24,868 bases of DNA from a virus (lineage: Duplodnaviria; Caudoviricetes): positions 1 to 24,868 of IMG/VR virus record IMGVR_UViG_3300033562_000527; one strand, written 5' to 3'. The position numbers and the translations under genes were made by a program. The notes under the pieces are model-generated. The model saw nothing but the letters and a program-made list of their open reading frames with translations, made no database searches and was not told where the DNA came from. This document shows, piece after piece, positions 3,585 to 19,665 of the stretch (its first letter is position 1; each line of letters begins with the position of its first letter).

Positions 3585-3623
3585 TTTGTTCTCCTGTTTA
3601 GTAGTGGTATCTCTTACTAAAAC

Positions 3624-3652
3624 ATTATAACACATTCACAATCGTCTGTCAA
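3624..3652 (-). promoter_or_regulatory. sigma70-type promoter (early promoter copy 2)
   Basis: TTGACA(3652-3647)-N17-TATAAT(3629-3624). Confidence 0.9.
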
Positions 3653-3849
3653 GTGTCTGTTGGAACTTCTTCCAAATAATCATTGTGTAGGGAATAAGGG
3701 GTCACTAGTCCGTCCCATAACACTTGAGTATAATTTTTATGGAGGTATGGACTGCGCCAAGGAATAACCGTACCTTGTCTATTCGGGTCACTCCTGACAA
3801 AAAGTCCTACACTTAATGCTCTTTTTGATAATTTAACCCGAATAGACAT
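3649..3849 (-). CDS. hypothetical protein
   Basis: ORF with GAAAGG RBS in operon context. Confidence 0.65.
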   Translation of the reverse strand: MSIRVKLSKRALSVGLFVRSDPNRQGTVIPWRSPYLHKNYTQVLWDGLVTPYSLHNDYLEEVPTDT

Positions 3850-4411: not shown

Positions 4412-5041
4412 TTACTCTGTGGGAATTACCTCGCCACAAATCACCACCCGCTCCTTGCGGCGCAATTTGGCACGTAATACATTGGCTAAATTCATACGCT
4501 GCATACCGCGATTAAGATGTTGCCAAACGAATGGCAGGCCATTCTCTACCGCAATAGAAGAAAGAACAGATTCGTTGCCGAGAAGAGCAGTGGATAGGGC
4601 ACGTGCCAAGACGTCACCGTTGCTCGTGCCACTAAGCCCCGCGTACCGATCTTTAAATTCCTTCTTTACAACAGAGCGGTTCAAAGAAGATACTTCGGGT
4701 GCGTCTTCGTCGGTCGGGGGCACCGATACAAGAGAAGAAGAGACAGGAGGCACGGAAAATACCTTAGCAGACCCAAGAGAGGGTACCGACATAAAGGGGG
4801 CAGGTGTCTCGTCCCCCGCAGATTTGAGTTTACCGAATCCTGCAGTATCGAGAGGGGTCAAATGTAAAGTTTTAATAAAACTGTCCATTAAAACAGGCAA
4901 ATCGTGACCCGATGCAAAACGGTTACTAGGATCATGTGTCACGCGCCAGCCATTCTTGATAGGTTGGATAGAAATCCCGTATGCCGTGGCACGAGCCGCA
5001 GTCTTATGATGGATTGTAGGTTTTAATGTGAGGGTCGCCAT
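4412..5041 (-). CDS. hypothetical protein
   Basis: 209-aa ORF, AATAGGAGA RBS, directly downstream of promoter copy 3; Ser/Pro-rich linker between two domains. Confidence 0.8.
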   Translation of the reverse strand: MATLTLKPTIHHKTAARATAYGISIQPIKNGWRVTHDPSNRFASGHDLPVLMDSFIKTLHLTPLDTAGFGKLKSAGDETPAPFMSVPSLGSAKVFSVPPVSSSLVSVPPTDEDAPEVSSLNRSVVKKEFKDRYAGLSGTSNGDVLARALSTALLGNESVLSSIAVENGLPFVWQHLNRGMQRMNLANVLRAKLRRKERVVICGEVIPTE

Positions 5042-5076
5042 GGTTATTCTCCTATTTGTTGTCCTATTACCAAAAT

Positions 5077-5105
5077 ATTATAACACATTCGAAAGCGTCT
5101 GTCAA
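5077..5105 (-). promoter_or_regulatory. sigma70-type promoter (early promoter copy 3)
   Basis: TTGACA(5105-5100)-N17-TATAAT(5082-5077). Confidence 0.9.
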
Positions 5106-5131
5106 GTATTTGTAAAGAGAAGAGGAGAAAC

Positions 5132-5160
5132 TTGACAAAGAAAAGAGGGTATGGTATATT
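5132..5160 (+). promoter_or_regulatory. sigma70-type promoter with extended -10, pointing into the non-coding region
   Basis: TTGACA(5132-5137)-N17-TATATT(5155-5160), with TG at 5152-5153. Confidence 0.85.
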
Positions 5161-5165
5161 GAGAC

Positions 5166-5905
5166 ACTGGCTGAGATAGTGTAGAAGACAGTCCAGATTA
5201 CAGGCGTAATACAAAAGCCTCTATGCTGCCCTGATTTAAGGTGGTTGGTGACGAAGAGATAGATGCGTATTTAGGTAAGTAGCTCCGAAACATCTGTTGA
5301 ACGCTCATAGGGCCTGATAACTGTAGTAAAAATAGCTTCGGCTATCGCGTAGAAGAGACTGAATAAAGATGCAGCAAGCGTAGGGATTTAATCCGGATTT
5401 CATTAAGACGTCCATCCTCTTAATGCGGGATACCGAGGAGAAACCCAACCGGTGATGTATTGATCCGAGATAACGGACAACCAGTGGTCATTATTGCTCC
5501 TGCATCGCACGACCCGACCCTACAACAGTCAAATTTACGTAGTAACTGGCACGGGGGGCGCATGCGCTATGTGAAATAGCTATTCCCCTTAATTGTGAAA
5601 AACATGTCGCGGTTTTGCGTCGCGTAGACAAAAGAAATTGAAAGCAAACCCATGTGGTGTTAAGGGTATGAGTGTCAGCATCACCGGATTGAATCCGTCC
5701 CAAAGCATATAAGAGTTGTAAGTTGTATCGTGGATAACGCCCCTTGCTTGAACCTACCATATCATGTGATAGATTTCAATGCCGGAAAATGGTAAATCGG
5801 AGACCCTACGAAACGATATAAGACTGCAACACTGAGAGACCGCTCTGACAACGAGGAACCCCCTCGGAATCGGAGCAAAAACTTGCGTAAAAAACGAAAT
5901 TACGG
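5166..5905 (+). ncRNA. candidate large structured non-coding RNA (~740 nt), family unassigned
   Basis: Own promoter, no credible ORF, many nested long-range helices, a C(UUCG)G hairpin at 5332-5345 and two putative pseudoknots (see findings); ends approximate. Confidence 0.7.
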
Positions 5906-6146
5906 GATTTAAATAAGAAAGAGAAGAAGAAAGTAAGAAGAGACACGTGCCACGAGCCACCGTCGAAAAAAAACTTAAGTGCGGTGCACAATGAAATTTC
6001 TTTTTTCCCCTACTTTCTCTCTTAAAAAAAGGAAAGGAAAAATAATTTAACACAAAAAAACGGGTCATCTGTCAAGTATTTGTCAAAATGACGGCTAAAA
6101 TGACATTTTTTACACAACGAGGTCCAGTAAACTTTAGAACCTAAGT

Positions 6147-6198
6147 AAACCGAGAAAATACGTTTCACGCCTTTCCCCGACGGGCTTCTCGGTTTTTT
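6147..6198 (+). terminator. possible intrinsic terminator / stem-loop
   Basis: aaaccgagaa(6147-6156)/ttctcggttt(6186-6195) stem running into a T-tract; the 29-nt loop is atypically large. Confidence 0.3.
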
Positions 6199-6318
6199 CT
6201 TATATTTTGTTTCACGAACGCAACTAAGTCGAGTAGGGGCATTAGGTATCGGGATACCGCATTGTTGCTCTCTTGCCACATATCTCGTGACATATTTTGC
6301 GGTATCTCCAATTGTTTT

Positions 6319-6549
6319 TCAGCCCCCTCCCTGATTACAACTTTCAGTTGTAGGGCCTATTTCGGGGTTGTCACTTTCCATATATCTCCAAGTTGTTTGT
6401 CCTCCGAATTCGGGATACTTGGCCCATGGCGGACAATTCGGACACGTGTTGTGGTGTCCCCAGCTCCAAGTTTCTCCATAGTGGTTTGTGTTTTGTTTTC
6501 CAACATACCCGCATCGGGTGCACTCGTAGCGTTTTTCTGTTATTTCCAT
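6319..6549 (-). CDS. small zinc-ribbon protein
   Basis: CTRC...CPNC; GGAGGA RBS. Confidence 0.75.
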   Translation of the reverse strand: MEITEKRYECTRCGYVGKQNTNHYGETWSWGHHNTCPNCPPWAKYPEFGGQTTWRYMESDNPEIGPTTESCNQGGG

Positions 6550-6622
6550 TTTATCCTCCGCTATATTAATAGCTTGGCATACGCCAAGACGTTTCGGGAC
6601 TACCTCCTCGTGGCACGGGACA

Positions 6623-6811
6623 CTATTCGCTCATGTACCATGACCCGCAATCGTTGCCGTTTATGTCCTTCAACGTGTGTTCTATTCCCGCCTCTGCTCC
6701 TTGTACAGTTATGGAATTAGCTAATTGCCTCAAGATTCGTGCCACTTCCCTTTCTGGTTCACCTTTGAATGTGTCGTTGTCTGTGTCGATTATCACTGTA
6801 AATTTAGGCAT
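6623..6811 (-). CDS. conserved small phage protein
   Basis: Start MPKFTVIIDTDNDTF at 6811 with CAGGAGGA RBS; EVARILRQLA...LKDINGNDCG pattern. Confidence 0.8.
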   Translation of the reverse strand: MPKFTVIIDTDNDTFKGEPEREVARILRQLANSITVQGAEAGIEHTLKDINGNDCGSWYMSE

Positions 6812-6848
6812 GTTCTGTTCCTCCTGTTTGAGTGTTTCCAACGTCTTT

Positions 6849-7034
6849 TTAACGTGTCGCGATTGTTCCGTTCCGGAATGTGCGAAACAAACCGCCAGAC
6901 CCGTAAACGAGTATGTCGGTCTCGTCGTAGTCCAGCGATTCTTGCGTCGCAAATTCCTTCATGTCGGGCCAGTGGTCCGTTTGGAACACGACACGCGGAG
7001 ATGGGGTGTTTGTGTTAAGAGCTATGTAAGCCAT
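6849..7034 (-). CDS. hypothetical protein
   Basis: ACAGGAGA RBS within a repeated leader. Confidence 0.7.
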   Translation of the reverse strand: MAYIALNTNTPSPRVVFQTDHWPDMKEFATQESLDYDETDILVYGSGGLFRTFRNGTIATR

Positions 7035-7041
7035 AGGGATT

Positions 7042-7299
7042 CTCCTGTTGTGTTAAGGGGTTACTGATGTGTGGTTAAGAAGGCGGAGAGTGATGAGCTG
7101 ATGACGCGTTCTACTTCCTCCATTTCTACTAGCTCGTTTGCCAGCGTCGCGATGTCTGCTGGCGTCTTGTCCTTGTCTTCCTCTTCTCGTTGGTCTAGCC
7201 AGTCTTGTCCTAGGCGACGAGCTACCTCGTCTAGTAGCTCGTGCCACGTGGCTTCTGTTAGGGTTGTGGGCATGGTCGTGTCCTCCTGTTGTGTTAAGG
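7042..7299 (-). repeat. 17-bp direct repeat leader containing the RBS (ccttaacacaacaggag on the minus strand)
   Basis: ctcctgttgtgttaagg at 7042-7058 and 7283-7299, each just upstream of a small gene. Confidence 0.85.
7061..7273 (-). CDS. small acidic hypothetical protein
   Basis: ACAGGAGGA RBS; D/E-rich helical protein. Confidence 0.75.
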   Translation of the reverse strand: MPTTLTEATWHELLDEVARRLGQDWLDQREEEDKDKTPADIATLANELVEMEEVERVISSSLSAFLTTHQ

Positions 7300-7337
7300 T
7301 GTAACGGGTCTCGATGTTTTCCGACGCTTTTTGTGGT

Positions 7338-7544
7338 CTAAAGAGCCAAGATGCCTTGGGCTATCGCCTCTATCTTCTTGGTTAGGTCCAAGGCTAGCAT
7401 CGCGCTGGACTTCCGCCCAGCTTGGTTGCTGTCGCCCTTTGCGTAGTTGGTTGCGTCGTCTGCGATTTGTTGTGCGATCTCGGCGATGCAGATCAGGGAA
7501 AAGCTAGCTGCATGGTCTGCGTAGGTGTGTTCGGTCATGGTCAT
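7338..7544 (-). CDS. hypothetical protein, first gene of the leftward arm
   Basis: Start at 7544 or 7538 after AAGAGGA, downstream of promoter copy 4. Confidence 0.7.
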   Translation of the reverse strand: MTMTEHTYADHAASFSLICIAEIAQQIADDATNYAKGDSNQAGRKSSAMLALDLTKKIEAIAQGILAL

Positions 7545-7587
7545 ATCCTCTTGTTGTGTGTCGGGCTTGATTGCCCCTTGATTCCTT

Positions 7588-7616
7588 ATTTTAGCACAGC
7601 GGAATCCGTCTGTCAA
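7588..7616 (-). promoter_or_regulatory. sigma70-type promoter (early promoter copy 4)
   Basis: TTGACA(7616-7611)-N17-TAAAAT(7593-7588). Confidence 0.85.
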
Positions 7617-7683
7617 GCGTCTGTGTAGATCTCGCTGCACGCGACGCTTGATTGTTGCAGCTTAGCCACATATACGCGACGCT

Positions 7684-7964: not shown

Positions 7965-8594
7965 ATGTCAGTAGATGTAGATTGGACTGTTATAGAACAA
8001 GATTATCGTGCCGGGGTCCTCTCGCAGTCGGCTATTTGTGCCAAGTATAACATATCTATCGAACAATTGAAGAGTAAAGTTTCTAAGTATAGATGGGAAC
8101 GGGTCCCTCTTGACCCTTTGGCAATCCAAGCAGCGCACGGTGTTATTTCTTCCCCTTCTCCTCCTAAATTTGGAATGGATTCCCATCTAAATGAATTAGA
8201 TTTACGTGATATGGCGGTTATTACGGCGGCGTCTGTCATTTCTATTCATCGCAAAGATGTTTATCGGTTGCGCGAAGTGGCTGCTCGTGTCTCGTGTTCC
8301 ATTGTAGATTTTGTTGATGCAGTAAATTCCGGTGACACAGAATCAGAAATGTTTAAAAGAGCCTGTATGATAATGGGAAAGGATTCTCCTGCCGATATGC
8401 TTGTAAAATTGTCGAACGTTATGACAAAATTAGTCGGTATCGAACGTCAAGCATTCGGTTTGGATATTCTCCCTCCAGACCCCGCTGCTGGAGAGTCTAC
8501 GGCCACTATCCAAACCGAAATGAGTAATATATGGACAAAAATGAAGGAAATTCAGGCGGTCAAAAATCAAGCGTCATTGAATCGAGAGGTATAA
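7965..8594 (+). CDS. terS: terminase small subunit (putative)
   Basis: N-terminal HTH DWTVIEQDYRAGVLSQSAICAKYNIS...W typical of TerS-like proteins; overlaps the TerL start; probable start ATG 7965. Confidence 0.75.
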   Translation: MSVDVDWTVIEQDYRAGVLSQSAICAKYNISIEQLKSKVSKYRWERVPLDPLAIQAAHGVISSPSPPKFGMDSHLNELDLRDMAVITAASVISIHRKDVYRLREVAARVSCSIVDFVDAVNSGDTESEMFKRACMIMGKDSPADMLVKLSNVMTKLVGIERQAFGLDILPPDPAAGESTATIQTEMSNIWTKMKEIQAVKNQASLNREV

Positions 8595-10969
8595 AATCTT
8601 CAGAACAGAAGTTTGCAGACAATCACTTTAAAACTGGTTCGGCACGGCTTGATATGATAGCTTGTGAGGCCCGTTTAAAATGGTTAGAGCAAGCTCGTTC
8701 CACGCAAGTAGCCCCTACGGGTGATTGGAGTGTGTGGGCACTTATTACCGGAAGGGGTTTTGGAAAGACTCGAAGTGCTGCTGAAGAAGCGTGGTGGCAA
8801 ATGATAGAAGATCCTGGTCTTCGTGCTGCGGTAATCGCGCCTACGAATGATGACGTTCGGCATACGTGTTTCGAAGGTGAATCGGGTCTCTTGGCTTGTT
8901 GTCCTGAAAAATTAATTAAGGCGTATAATCGGTCCATGTTGACCCTTGAATTAGTGAATGGGTCCATTATTCGCGGTTTTTCATCGGAAAAGCCAGAACG
9001 TTTGCGCGGGCCGCAGCATGGTCTTTGTTTAGCAGGAAATACAATTGTTACTATGGGGGATTATTCTACTAAATTATTAAAAGATGTTTTAGTTGGGGAT
9101 TTTGTGTTGACTCGTGTCGGTTCCCGTCGTGTTACATATTCCGGAATGACTAATTCTAATACTGAAGTATTCCAAATTACTTCTTGTAAAACAACTATAC
9201 TTGGCACGAAGGACCATTTAGTGTATACTATTAATAGGGGATGGGTCCCTCTGGGTAGTGTCATTAAAGGGGATACGTTATGCCATTTGTCGAATACGCA
9301 AACAAAAAATGGTGGAAATGTAAAGACGGGTATTATTGCGAAAATTATGGGAAAAGGTTGCATCGTCAAATTTACGAAGACAATTTTGGCACAATCCCAA
9401 AGAGTAAAATTGTTCACCATAGAGATGGTAATAAAGATAATAATGACCCTTCAAATTACGAACTTATTTCGTGGGGCGAACATTCTAAATTACATGCCAC
9501 AGGACGACAAAAAACAGAAAATGAAAGAAGATTACTGTCAGAGTCAAACAAAACTGTATGGGAAAAATTGGAGCCCCGAATTGGTAAGTGTAGGTTGTGT
9601 AGTAAAGAGTATAAAAGAAAATGTTCGGGAAAAATTAGTCCATTTTGTAGTAAACATTGTGAAAATTTGTACCGGAGTAATGCCTTCAGGGAAGAAAGGC
9701 ATTGCAAATATTGCGGCAAAATGTTTATTGCAGACGACAAACGGCATTGGTTGTGCAGTGACTTATGCAGACGACAACATTATAAAGAAAATAGGGGTAG
9801 ACAACAAGAACGAGAATATAATTGTGATCAGTGCGGCAAATTGTGTAAATCAAAACAAAAACGAGCAAGATTTTGTTGTCACGAGTGTGGTAGATTGTAT
9901 CACAGACATAGTGCAAAGCGTAGAAAAATATCCGATTTGTATTCCAGTGTATGATATAAGTGTAGAAGAGGAACATGAATTTTTTGCGAATGGTGTAGTG
10001 GTTCATAATTGTTGGTTAGAAGAATTCGCCGCGTGGTCAAATATTGAAGATACGTGGGCCATGATGAAGTTTGGTCTTCGTCTCGGCAAAAATCCACGCA
10101 AAATTATTACTACCACTCCTAAACCTATTCAGTTAGTACGGGACGTTATAGCCGACCCCGGTACTGTGGTGGTTCGTGGCTCGACATACGACAACAAAGC
10201 TAATTTACCGGAAAAGTTTTTTGAGGATGTTGTTCAGTACGAAGGTACGGCACTAGGTAGACAAGAGCTTCATGGGGAGCTTATTAATCTTGAGGAAATG
10301 GGCATATTTAAACGTTCATGGTTTAAAGTGTGGCCCAAGACAAAACCGTACCCCATTTGCGAACTTATTGTTCAGTCGTGGGATACGGCATTTTCGGAAA
10401 AACAAACAGCGGATTTTACAGTATGCACTACATGGGGCCTTTTTCCGTCCACAGAAGGTACCACGGGATACGGTGCTATTTTATGGGACGCATGGGCGGA
10501 CCAAATAGCATACCCCGACTTACGCAAAAAGGCGATAAAAGAGTACGGTACAAAGTATGGCCCCAATGAGCGTCGGCCAGATATTGTACTGATAGAAGAA
10601 AAAGCGTCGGGTCAGTCTCTTATACAAGACCTTCGTCGTGCGGGGATTCCGGTGCGAGCATGGAATCCAGGGAGGCAGGACAAAACGCAACGTGCCCATA
10701 CTATTTCGCATTTAGTTAAAGACGGATTAATATACATTCCAGAATCTCAACAGTCCGCTCGTTCGGGGCAGTTTATGACATGGGCAAATGAAATGATAGA
10801 GCAATTAGTCTTCTTCCCCAATGTGAGAAATGACGACTATGTAGATAGTTTTGTTCAGTTCATTTCTCTGATGCGGGATACGGGATGGATGACATCCCAA
10901 CGTGCGGAGTCAGGGGAATTGACATACTGGAGAAGGTTAATGAAAAAAGGCCAAGGGGCGTACGGCTAA
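8531..10969 (+). CDS. terL: terminase large subunit, intein-containing (812-aa precursor, 484 aa after splicing)
   Basis: Walker A GRGFGKT, RLRGPQH, Walker B CWLEE, coupling motif TTTP, nuclease motifs QSWDTA, IEEKASG, DDYVDS. Confidence 0.95.
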   Translation: MDKNEGNSGGQKSSVIESRGIKSSEQKFADNHFKTGSARLDMIACEARLKWLEQARSTQVAPTGDWSVWALITGRGFGKTRSAAEEAWWQMIEDPGLRAAVIAPTNDDVRHTCFEGESGLLACCPEKLIKAYNRSMLTLELVNGSIIRGFSSEKPERLRGPQHGLCLAGNTIVTMGDYSTKLLKDVLVGDFVLTRVGSRRVTYSGMTNSNTEVFQITSCKTTILGTKDHLVYTINRGWVPLGSVIKGDTLCHLSNTQTKNGGNVKTGIIAKIMGKGCIVKFTKTILAQSQRVKLFTIEMVIKIIMTLQITNLFRGANILNYMPQDDKKQKMKEDYCQSQTKLYGKNWSPELVSVGCVVKSIKENVREKLVHFVVNIVKICTGVMPSGKKGIANIAAKCLLQTTNGIGCAVTYADDNIIKKIGVDNKNENIIVISAANCVNQNKNEQDFVVTSVVDCITDIVQSVEKYPICIPVYDISVEEEHEFFANGVVVHNCWLEEFAAWSNIEDTWAMMKFGLRLGKNPRKIITTTPKPIQLVRDVIADPGTVVVRGSTYDNKANLPEKFFEDVVQYEGTALGRQELHGELINLEEMGIFKRSWFKVWPKTKPYPICELIVQSWDTAFSEKQTADFTVCTTWGLFPSTEGTTGYGAILWDAWADQIAYPDLRKKAIKEYGTKYGPNERRPDIVLIEEKASGQSLIQDLRRAGIPVRAWNPGRQDKTQRAHTISHLVKDGLIYIPESQQSARSGQFMTWANEMIEQLVFFPNVRNDDYVDSFVQFISLMRDTGWMTSQRAESGELTYWRRLMKKGQGAYG
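9201..9229 (+). promoter_or_regulatory. internal sigma70-type promoter inside the intein coding sequence
   Basis: TTGGCA(9201-9206)-N17-TATACT(9224-9229), about 50 nt upstream of the nested HNH ATG. Confidence 0.6.
9280..9954 (+). CDS. HNH homing endonuclease with C-terminal Cys-rich zinc-finger repeats, nested out of frame within the intein
   Basis: RLHRQIY...IVHHRDGNKDNNDPSNYELISWGEHSKLH (HNH_3-type) plus three CxxC...(F/L)C(S/C)xxC units; AAAGGGG RBS before the ATG. Confidence 0.9.
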   Translation: MPFVEYANKKWWKCKDGYYCENYGKRLHRQIYEDNFGTIPKSKIVHHRDGNKDNNDPSNYELISWGEHSKLHATGRQKTENERRLLSESNKTVWEKLEPRIGKCRLCSKEYKRKCSGKISPFCSKHCENLYRSNAFREERHCKYCGKMFIADDKRHWLCSDLCRRQHYKENRGRQQEREYNCDQCGKLCKSKQKRARFCCHECGRLYHRHSAKRRKISDLYSSV

Positions 10970-11031: not shown

Positions 11032-12423
11032 ATGACTCAAAATCGCATGTCAGCGCGTACGACGCCCTATAAAGTAGATATTAATACTATTTTACAAAAT
11101 TCTATTAGAGATCCTGATGTGTTGGCAATGATACTGGAATCTGATCCCCAATTATCCAAAATGTTTAATTTAAATAATACTGCACAACAAGCACAAACAA
11201 AAAACAAAATGTCGCAAGCGCAAATAGATAAATTGTTTTCCAGAATGGAACAGGGGGTCCAGAAAAAAGCTAAGGGCGGAATGGTGGATTCGGTATATGA
11301 TATGGCAGAGGCCGACGATGAAGAAACGCTGCCCGAAAGAATGAAGAAATGGGCGCAAGGGGAAGAAGGGACAGAATATGCAGAAATTCTGCCTATTGCA
11401 CGTAGAGGGGATGATATCAGTTTTGCAGCACCTAAGGCTGTAAGGTCGGTGGCACGTGGCACGGCGGAATTATTGGAGGGCGCACACGGCAAGTTACCCA
11501 TCGGGGAGAACATTTCGCCCGACGCTTTTGATGCATTGATGGGTATGTCTGTACCAGGGCTCTTGACCAAAGACCGTGGTACGCTTGGTATGTTTGCGGG
11601 CCAAAAAGCACGTGGTGCGGACTTAGAAAAACTAGCTGTGGCCAAAAAGTTTACTGAAGCGGGGGGAAAGCCAGAAGAAATTTGGAATTTAACCGGATGG
11701 ATGCGCGGTAAAGATGGTAAATGGCGTTTTGAAATTCCAGACGATCAAATGCAATATATTCCAGAAGGTATGCAGTATATAAAAAATCCCCCTACTGGAG
11801 GGGCCCCTGCCTTGGCCTTGGATCAAGTAGTAGACCATCAAAAATTGTTTGATGCGTATCCCGAACTTAAAGGGCATGCTATTATGACAGACCCTGAACT
11901 ACCGCACGGAGCAGGGGTATATGACCCTAATATCAATGTAATTACTATGTCCCGTAGTAATATAAATCCGGATGGTACGCATGTGAATTTGCGTGGTGGA
12001 AATGTGCCGTTACACGAAATGCAACATGCTGTACAAGAAATAGAGGGATTTGAGCCTGGGTCAAATATGGAAATGTATTCGGCGGGTAATATTTCAGAAC
12101 GCGAAGCGTATGATATGTATCGTAAAAATTTAGGTGAAGTAGAAGCACGTAATACTGAAGCACGTAGGAAAATGAGTGCGTTGAAACGCAAGCATTCCTA
12201 CCCCGAATGGACGCAAGACGTAAAACCAAAAGACACGACTACTAAGCCAAAAATGATGGCTTCTGAAGACATTGAGAAGTTTGCCGATGGTGGATTAGTC
12301 TTGTCTCGTTCGAAGAAATTTGTTAAAGATTGTAAGCCTATTAATAAAGAACACTATCGTCAGTCACTTGGTGTGGATTCGTTATCAAAAGTTAGAACCA
12401 AAGTAAGGAAACCGTTTAAATGA
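11032..12423 (+). CDS. LPD23-like (large polyvalent protein domain) protein with an HExxH motif
   Basis: TGWMRGKDGKWRFEIPD, HQKLFDAYPEL, LHEMQHAVQEIEGF, YRKNLGEVEARNTEARR. Confidence 0.75.
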   Translation: MTQNRMSARTTPYKVDINTILQNSIRDPDVLAMILESDPQLSKMFNLNNTAQQAQTKNKMSQAQIDKLFSRMEQGVQKKAKGGMVDSVYDMAEADDEETLPERMKKWAQGEEGTEYAEILPIARRGDDISFAAPKAVRSVARGTAELLEGAHGKLPIGENISPDAFDALMGMSVPGLLTKDRGTLGMFAGQKARGADLEKLAVAKKFTEAGGKPEEIWNLTGWMRGKDGKWRFEIPDDQMQYIPEGMQYIKNPPTGGAPALALDQVVDHQKLFDAYPELKGHAIMTDPELPHGAGVYDPNINVITMSRSNINPDGTHVNLRGGNVPLHEMQHAVQEIEGFEPGSNMEMYSAGNISEREAYDMYRKNLGEVEARNTEARRKMSALKRKHSYPEWTQDVKPKDTTTKPKMMASEDIEKFADGGLVLSRSKKFVKDCKPINKEHYRQSLGVDSLSKVRTKVRKPFK

Positions 12424-18901: not shown

Positions 18902-18961
18902 TTGACACTTTGTTTTTGGTGTGTTAAGTTGGGGACTTCTTTAACAAAAAGGAGTCCCCAA
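18902..18961 (+). promoter_or_regulatory. promoter plus RBS-sequestering hairpin for the endonuclease gene
   Basis: TTGACA(18902-18907)-N17-TAAGTT(18925-18930); 14-bp stem 18929-18942/18948-18961 covering AAGGAG and the A of ATG. Confidence 0.8.
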
Positions 18962-19665
18962 TGCTTATTTCCGCCAAAAAATGTTCTGTAGTAGGTTGTA
19001 ATGAACCCGTATGCGCCAAAGATTTATGTAATACGCATTATAAAAGATTGAATCGTCATGGACACATTCACAATACTCGACCTATGGATTGGGGTAGTAG
19101 AGAGAAAAGTCCTTTATACACTACGTATAACTGGATAATGTCGAAATTGAGTAATGATATTTGCGAGGAATGGCGGCAAGATTTTTGGCAATTTGTTAAA
19201 GATGTAGAATGTAAACCGAAGAATCACGTTCTAGCCCGTGTGGATATTAATTTGCCTTTCTGTAAAAATAATTGTTATTGGCAAGAAAAAAAGACGTCTG
19301 GTAATTCCGAAGAAAGGAAAAAAAAGTTAAGAGAATACCAAAAGCTTTGGAGAAATAATAATCCTGAAAAAGCGTTAAATACTTCTTTAAAAAAACATTA
19401 TAATATGAATGTAGAAGAATACAATAGTATGTATATTTTGCAAAAAGGCAAGTGTAAAATATGTGTAAAGGAAGAGAGTGCAGTGGATAATAGGACTAAA
19501 AAATTGCGTCGTTTAGCGGTTGATCATTGTCATAAAACAGGTAAAATTCGCGGGTTATTATGCTCGTCGTGTAACGGTGCGTTGGGTAGGTTTTATGATG
19601 ATCCTTCCCTTGTTCGTCGCGCCGCAGAGTATGTCGAGAAAGATGGGGACATTGCACTTTTGTAG
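18961..19665 (+). CDS. free-standing endonuclease VII-type HNH (putative homing) endonuclease
   Basis: QKGKCKIC...LAVDHCHKTGKIRGLLCSSCNGALG; N-terminal CSVVGC...LCNTHY Zn motif; AT-rich insertion after the capsid gene. Confidence 0.9.
   Translation: MLISAKKCSVVGCNEPVCAKDLCNTHYKRLNRHGHIHNTRPMDWGSREKSPLYTTYNWIMSKLSNDICEEWRQDFWQFVKDVECKPKNHVLARVDINLPFCKNNCYWQEKKTSGNSEERKKKLREYQKLWRNNNPEKALNTSLKKHYNMNVEEYNSMYILQKGKCKICVKEESAVDNRTKKLRRLAVDHCHKTGKIRGLLCSSCNGALGRFYDDPSLVRRAAEYVEKDGDIALL

Follow-up and report, generated by a model that had tools for sequence, protein, structure and literature searches.

Positions 5166-5908 (+ strand) of a phage record in IMG/VR are predicted to be a stand-alone gene for a folded RNA of ~740 nt, which is very likely a real, rare and undescribed large non-coding RNA of the kind known as large orphan RNAs of phages. 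The window is the entire IMG/VR record, with a length of 24,868 bases; it represents ~43% of the genome by estimated completeness, and the full phage would measure ~58 kb. The original prediction was of a structured + strand RNA gene with its own promoter and an elaborate fold. The gene is supported by compensatory and G-U-tolerant changes in homologous fragments, a cUUCGg loop and a lack of coding constraint, whereas the detailed fold is mostly hypothetical. We are confident that this is a real structured RNA gene, and only slightly less so that its family lies outside Rfam.

The phage and its candidate transcription unit

The leftward arm of the window holds small genes, including those for a pyrimidine-dimer glycosylase and a GcrA-like protein, and the rightward arm carries the genes for terminase (with an intein), portal, GroES-like protein and capsid. 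The capsid protein shares 72% identity with its counterpart in Caulobacter phage RW and 41% with the one in Pelagibacter phage HTVC023P, and phages of the RW group and HTVC023P-like phages have a similar gene order, terminase-portal-GroES-capsid. The portal protein reaches at most 52% identity to any other protein among the matches listed, and in a tree built from 53 of the 120 matches listed it stands alone on a long branch. Judged by these proteins, the phage is a lone lineage and kin of Caulobacter phage RW. The GcrA-like cell-cycle regulator (1656-2126; PF07750, E 1.9e-9) hints at an alphaproteobacterial host, and on account of this gene and the likeness to RW we infer such a host.

Several other genes were observed in the rightward arm. 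The terminase large subunit gene (8531-10969) contains its intein at residues 207-493 (Pfam PF14890), a 463-aa protein with an LPD23 domain is encoded between terminase and portal (11032-12423), and an endonuclease VII / HNH gene follows immediately after the capsid gene (18961-19665). In Caulobacter phage RW (L002, 42117-44919), the large terminase is annotated as two pieces, which are separated by a gene for a SAM-dependent methyltransferase.

The candidate RNA lies in 5042-6164, the longest gap in the window that is free of a credible open reading frame (ORF) under the rule set for this analysis; the ~1 kb without a credible ORF that had been described downstream of a promoter is thus borne out. 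The strong dedicated promoter said to point into this gap is also present. It is of the sigma-70 type, TTGACA(5132)-17-TATATT(5160), occupies 5132-5160 (+), matches 11 of 12 consensus positions and has an extended-10 TG. Exact TTGACA-17-TGnTATAnT sites occur four times in the contig and not once in 100 shuffles. The other three face leftward early-type genes; one of them (5077-5105, -; 12/12 consensus) stands back-to-back with 5132-5160 and faces a 209-aa ORF (4412-5041). Because this form of promoter is common to the early-type leftward sites of the phage, the host sigma-70 polymerase is predicted to transcribe the RNA early in infection. On the - strand, a recurrent early-type promoter cassette (TTGACAG...TGTGTTATAAT) is found ahead of small leftward gene groups at 1631-1659, 3624-3652, 5077-5105 and 7588-7616, and the cassette segments 3611-3660 and 5064-5113 are 84% identical.

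The start of the RNA at ~5166 is placed from the -10 box, and its end at 5908 is a candidate only, next to the last hairpin before an A-rich tract (5886-5904, +; ensemble probability 0.67). Between these limits there are 10-23 stops per + frame. A possible terminator, formed by a 10-bp stem and then a U run (6147-6202, +; z -2.8), was missed by a consensus terminator scan, and one change in a relative breaks a pair of the stem; if the primary transcript runs on to this stem and U run, it would possibly be ~1,030 nt long. At 6039-6086 (-) the leftward promoter region 5072-5116 recurs in degenerate form, its spacer being 20 nt through a T run, and the two regions form a direct repeat that brackets the RNA gene. 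This bracketing suggests that the gene may have arrived as a cassette.

Three further observations concern the downstream flank. If active, the promoter copy at 6039-6086 would fire antisense across the RNA. The segment 5910-6045 consists of a purine tract, a pyrimidine tract and a second purine tract, has a long predicted stem on the - strand (z -2.1), and resembles A/T-run regions close to genome ends in related phages. Beyond it, 6220-6339 (-) folds much better than shuffles (z -4.8); it lies just beyond the stop of ORF 6319-6549 and overlaps a possible ORF of 41-48 codons at 6165-6311.

Base pairing and predicted fold

Three public DNA runs (X1, X2 and X3) contain the stretch or part of it, and two more (X4 and X5) give no cover of it; no RNA run was listed among the holders, which bears neither way on expression. 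The first, X1, holds 96% of the sampled words and may be the source of the record, and for this reason it was counted solely for a two-letter variant. The covariation set consists of three 151-nt contigs from the other two runs at a depth of 2 to 3.5, covering ~400 of 745 nt, with 5166-5381 outside; differences near contig ends are absent from the change lists, and the listed changes are therefore fewer than the total.

The wastewater run, X3, supplies one 151-nt contig on 5522-5672, which is 90% identical to the phage and carries 15 differences, of which 11 are listed. All 11 fall in 5553-5588, and none in the 52 nt that we refer to as conserved block B (5591-5642, +), set beside 11 in the adjoining 39 nt (p 3.5e-5). 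Six of the changes make up three double changes in the helix 5566-70/5576-80 (G-C to A-U, A-U to G-C and U-A to C-G), which had been named before the variants were known, and a fourth compensatory double change is found in the lower stem, at 5555/5588. The remaining changes are one from G-U to A-U, one in the loop and one that fits a pair added post hoc. In total, the hairpin at 5553-5590 (+), which has a GUGAA loop, shows four compensatory pairs, one or two tolerated one-sided changes and no broken pair. When 11 transitions were placed at random over the listed range, three compensated and no broken pairs in the named helix were obtained in 1 of 200,000 placements (5e-6), and with placement confined to the 36-nt cluster in 319 of 200,000 (1.6e-3). 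Base pairing in hairpin 5553-5590 is under selection.

The lake-water run, X2, contributes the other two contigs. On 5382-5532 there are 4 differences, 2 of them listed, and no listed change falls within the 62 nt of conserved block A (5441-5502, +). The second contig, on 5720-5831, shows 13 differences, of which 6 are listed, along with 3 gaps and a loose end; the density of changes differs between 5412-5502 and 5750-5801 (Fisher p 0.002). A hairpin beyond the earlier list (5746-5782, +; helix 5748-5779) keeps its pairs in all four listed changes at paired positions. In the loose end, which was aligned by eye, U5846-G5872 becomes C-G, and because of this change the local helix 5842-48/5870-76 is favoured over the pseudoknot 5282-88/5870-76. 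Pairing selection on hairpins 5748-5779 and 5842-5876 is thus more weakly supported by sequence than that on 5553-5590. Five one-sided changes, from A-U to G-U or from U-G to C-G, leave pairs that are stable on the + strand; since the A-U to G-U changes hold on that strand only, they agree with the + strand promoter and with the cUUCGg loop at 5336-41.

In the predicted fold, a 5' domain (5166-5361, +) contains this loop (5336-5341) and an E-loop-like UAGUA/GAAG pair at 5324/5352, a pattern that is reached by 71 of 2000 shuffles. A central domain (5370-5828, +) is possibly closed by the long-range ladder 5370-5396/5782-5828 and the helix 5449-57/5679-87, and a stable 3' hairpin (5841-5877, +) is built from helices 5842-48/5870-76 and 5852-56/5862-66. 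Block B includes a hairpin (5605-5630) whose loop is able to pair with 5643-50 or 5875-80. All 18 strand pairs of the original prediction are complementary and lie where they were placed, but 5194-5204/5313-23 and 5219-25/5306-12 require a mismatch or a G-U pair, and the helices at 5379-85 and 5385-90 both claim G5385 at once. The proposed pseudoknot 5282-88/5870-76 has complementary strands, but the local helix 5842-48/5870-76 shares its 3' strand and takes an ensemble probability of 0.98 against 0.01; 5494-5500 is a third possible partner for 5870-76. The other proposed pseudoknot, 5521-26/5715-27, is a putative one, predicted from the complementarity of its strands. Covariation among homologues was found in one of the 18 named helices, 5566-70/5576-80. 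Elsewhere, 5370-74/5824-28 has one tolerated change, the change at 5797 in X2 breaks a pair of the ladder helix 5385-90/5793-98 unless an unlisted partner change repairs it, and the rest of the fold is mostly without such support. Because only fragments of homologues were found, the global structure is not yet drawable from covariation, and the overall fold is a modelled one.

Relatives and known RNA families

No full-length homologue was found in any collection searched, and blastn of named phages and plasmids gave no full-length match. DNA patterns found 0, 75, 2, 6 and 1 loci in IMG/VR, 0 and 12 loci in JGI metagenomes and 21 loci in GTDB genomes, all of which were chance matches by nhmmer and blastn; it is important to note that exact-pattern scans overlook diverged homologues and do not in themselves show absence. 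Five metagenome pattern matches proved to be one eukaryote-like protein-coding gene, and a lone 30-nt match among 401 genomes of one phylum, located on a 323-codon open frame, was taken as chance. The flanks of 160 related phage loci among the matches listed (15/64 and 47/64 parts) gave no full-length homologue, and the RNA was not found in 49 whole related viral records (16 of them at least 90% complete) or in phage RW. Two single-sequence covariance models, a weak type of model, gave no full-length homologue over the 49 related records and 62-66 loci. No publications on such an RNA in this phage group were found, with few subscription papers covered.

The X3 run also holds flank pieces of the phage, which differ at 2 positions in 176 nt and at 16 in 266 nt, and a close relative of the phage therefore exists. 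The X3 fragment of the RNA is no more conserved than these flanks, which may come from the same genome. Given that no full-length homologue was found, that conservation is at the level of the flanks and that the bracketing is cassette-like, the RNA looks rare and accessory, as far as sequence comparison goes.

The earlier statement that the RNA can be assigned to no family is supported, since Rfam 15 gives nothing and dedicated searches are negative. A cmscan of the whole window against Rfam 15 at gathering scores gave no match for the stretch, and at E 10 there was no relevant match over 5000-6300, 5160-5560 and 5820-5930 (OLE, HEARO/omega RNA, RNase P, tmRNA and ARRPOF included). GOLLD (RF02032; conserved 3' domain) did not match at E 10, where its controls ring weakly in 5 of 14 genomes and none above the cut-off. 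ROOL (RF03087) was negative by cmscan at the gathering score and at E 10 and in a dedicated search, the controls of which rang nowhere. For self-cleaving ribozymes, no CUGANGA (hammerhead core) was present and cmscan was negative.

According to the accessible parts of the sources, the phage-borne RNAs GOLLD and ROOL measure 580-830 nt and assemble via kissing loops into cages made of RNA only (bioRxiv 10.1101/2024.12.08.627333; PMC12990946). GOLLD is described there as large (700-830 nt), phage- or prophage-borne and non-coding, like the candidate, and as having separable 5' and 3' domains; it rises at lysis, whereas the candidate's promoter looks early. ROOL, in the part of its description that is available (PMC5737381), is a large ornate phage or prophage RNA with pseudoknots and few invariant bases; it averages ~580 nt, compared with ~740 nt for the candidate. 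Both RNAs often adjoin tRNA genes, whereas the window, from a record that is 43% complete, has no tRNA gene and no tmRNA by ARAGORN. Large phage RNAs of the GOLLD/ROOL size class do exist, as had been stated, but the candidate resembles them in size and phage context only.

Possible roles and alternative readings

By analogy with GOLLD and ROOL, the RNA may be a trans-acting structural scaffold that would assemble through loop-loop pairing. This reading is proposed because such assembly is known from the best-studied phage RNAs of similar size and because there is no partner enzyme gene beside the candidate; as a mechanism, an RNA-only trans-acting scaffold is held tentatively, at somewhat less than even confidence. 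In its favour, long unchanged blocks adjoin variable hairpins, and several single strands carry competing partners of 6-7 nt, as an assembling RNA would need. On the other side, a sequence of 745 nt is expected to contain 6-7-base complementarities by chance, so their presence does not demonstrate intermolecular pairing, and the covariation comes from three short low-depth contigs only. Palindromes were rejected as dimer sites: three 10-mers overlap the stretch, and the palindrome at 5558 is broken in the homologue.

A monomeric RNA that binds a host or phage protein, as an early decoy, a sponge or the core of a ribonucleoprotein for takeover or counter-defence, is a serious if rather unlikely alternative to the scaffold. 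The early-type promoter amid small early genes, including that of the GcrA-like regulator, would suit such a role, the long invariant blocks could be protein-binding surfaces, and OLE, in the available part of its description, is a large ornate RNA with protein partners. However, no recognisable RNA-binding, nuclease or reverse transcriptase gene was found adjacent to the candidate, and the neighbouring 209-aa ORF has zero homologues among 5.8 billion proteins. A protein partner could lie elsewhere, since 57% of the genome is missing from the record.

It is improbable, though worth weighing, that the RNA is structured in part only (e.g., over 5370-5905, or as a string of independent hairpins), with the 5' domain and the ladder being chance. 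Much of the comparison with shuffled sequences bears on this reading. Folding energy had been expected to be better than that of shuffles and is not: over the whole length, the + strand has a z of +0.36 and the - strand one of +0.26. Likewise, the 184 Watson-Crick stems of at least 5 bp are at chance level (180.9 +/- 12.4 in 100 shuffles), and both results speak against the preferred explanation of a folded ~740-nt RNA. For long pseudoknotted RNAs, z-scores of folding energy have little power as a test, and for this reason they neither support nor kill the RNA claim. Sliding-window z never falls below -1.03 across 5140-5780, and 5836-5908 is the only part that folds better than shuffles (z -4.1, 0/200 shuffles). 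In a first test, none of 100 shuffles equalled the nested 22-bp ladder; when overlaps were trimmed and several window sizes were tried in a retest, 8, 30, 83 and 126 of 1000 shuffles reached its score, so that its excess is limited to tight, post hoc window sizes and its significance depends on the parameters, wide windows not being significant. The ensemble probabilities of the ladder helices are at most 0.03, compared with 0.87 for 5449/5687 and 0.87 to 1.0 over 5449/5687, 5566/5580, 5842/5876 and 5852/5866. There is also no homologue over 5166-5381. Against a partial structure, transcription from the promoter would begin at ~5166, and the two lake-run fragments both lie within the candidate and extend to both strands of the ladder.

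Less probable still is a group II-like ribozyme without an ORF, strongly diverged or rearranged, in which 5841-5877 would be the catalytic hairpin. This hairpin fits a relaxed domain 5 (D5) pattern, with CGC, exactly 5 bp and a 2-nt 3' bulge, and is the sole such site on either contig strand. The pattern was composed after the hairpin had been seen; 62 of 2000 shuffles have a site, and 5/5 real D5 controls pass. A strict D5 pattern (AGC/CGC triad, G-U at the middle base, first base paired) finds 0 sites, with 5/5 controls passing, and the bulge is AA, not AY or UN, and the loop AACCC, not GNRA. The loose end of the X2 homologue retains CCGC and the 5' strand of the 5 bp. In the accessible part of one report, the first triad base of circularly permuted group II RNAs is unpaired, as it is in the candidate, and these RNAs have a UN bulge and the order D5-D6-D1-D4 (PMC8637638). 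The domain order of the candidate fits neither this nor D1-D6. Large group II-related RNAs without an ORF are described in partly available sources, HYER1 at 637 nt and the circularly permuted forms at ~900 nt (PMC8637638).

By eye, parts of the candidate looked similar to domain 1d, the E-loop and D5 in real group IIC introns. They were compared by colinear blocks with introns from 12 + 65 matching genomes (38 of 50 loci used), and the window scored 5.7 versus 10.5 +/- 3.6 for shuffles, 937 of 1000 of which reach 5.7, and ~150-200 for the 12 real introns scored; because its score is below the shuffle mean, a sequence likeness to group IIC is rejected. A profile from 39 group IIC loci gave no match, and neither did RF00029, RF01998 and RF02001 at E 10, for which controls ring. 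Between 5834 and 5841 there is no room for domains 2-4, no GUGYG occurs within 5166-5908 and there are no GUGYG/AY boundaries, and the hairpin after 5877 has no D6-type bulged A in the predicted fold. Placing D5 at 5216-5315 instead would need a 76-nt insert and an extra bulge. From its sequence, the D5-like hairpin is a weak lead only. For group I introns, RF00028 gave no match, with controls ringing. GAGACUG (5355-61) and CAGUCC (5189-94) could form what we take to be a P7-like helix with a bulged A, but its strands are in reverse order compared with group I introns, the S motif is absent, and inspection by eye revealed no J8/7 or P3-P6 elements. On the negative RF00028 result and the reversed strands, a permuted group I intron was rejected.

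A cis-acting element is very improbable, whether as antisense or transcription interference on the converging early operon 6319-7640 or as an origin-like region of DNA. Its grounds are that the 5132-5160 promoter points toward the leftward-transcribed genes starting at 7611-7616 and that related phages have ORF-free, repeat-rich gaps near the terminase. Those gaps, however, share no sequence with the candidate and were rejected as the same element, being genome-end- or origin-like; the candidate and the converging genes do not overlap, and the compensatory and G-U-tolerant changes indicate selection on one folded strand. Near the terminase, four related phages (L037 2935-4165, L047 2384-3720, L053 6295-7063 and L084 1-609) have a common non-coding motif, GATACCCC...GACCCCC...GGGGGCCCCACAG...GTTTTT, followed by A/T runs and short iterated repeats, which is possibly a packaging or replication signal.

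Small - strand proteins, of 89 aa at 5491-5760 (a product predicted in the contig by the gene caller) and of 104 aa at 5754-6068, are scarcely credible, as 9 of the 11 X3 changes alter the 89-aa protein, the homologue has a net +1 indel within the end of the 104-aa frame, a Shine-Dalgarno motif precedes most flanking genes but neither of these ORFs, a search of 5.8 billion proteins found no homologue of the 89-aa product, and none of the four ORFs of the gap matches Pfam. In the 89-codon ORF, 2/11 changes are synonymous and the best of any frame is 4/11, set beside 2/6 in two flanking ORFs, a thin control. To judge from these sequences, there is a lack of coding constraint and the changes do not fit a protein.

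Elaborately folded bacterial and phage RNAs longer than ~500 nt are few in number. Those that have been solved are ribozymes, ribosome-scale scaffolds or RNA-only cages, and in the accessible parts of the sources the job of GOLLD and ROOL is still unknown. It is possible, although on the unlikely side, that the present RNA founds a new class of large phage RNAs, being ~740 nt long, made early, exchanged horizontally and carried between duplicated early promoters. It would then be either a third type of nanocage built of RNA only or a group II-like ribozyme that lacks an ORF, is rearranged and has its active hairpin at the 3' end. If true, a new family of this size, in a small (~58 kb) phage and under an early-type promoter, would widen the set.
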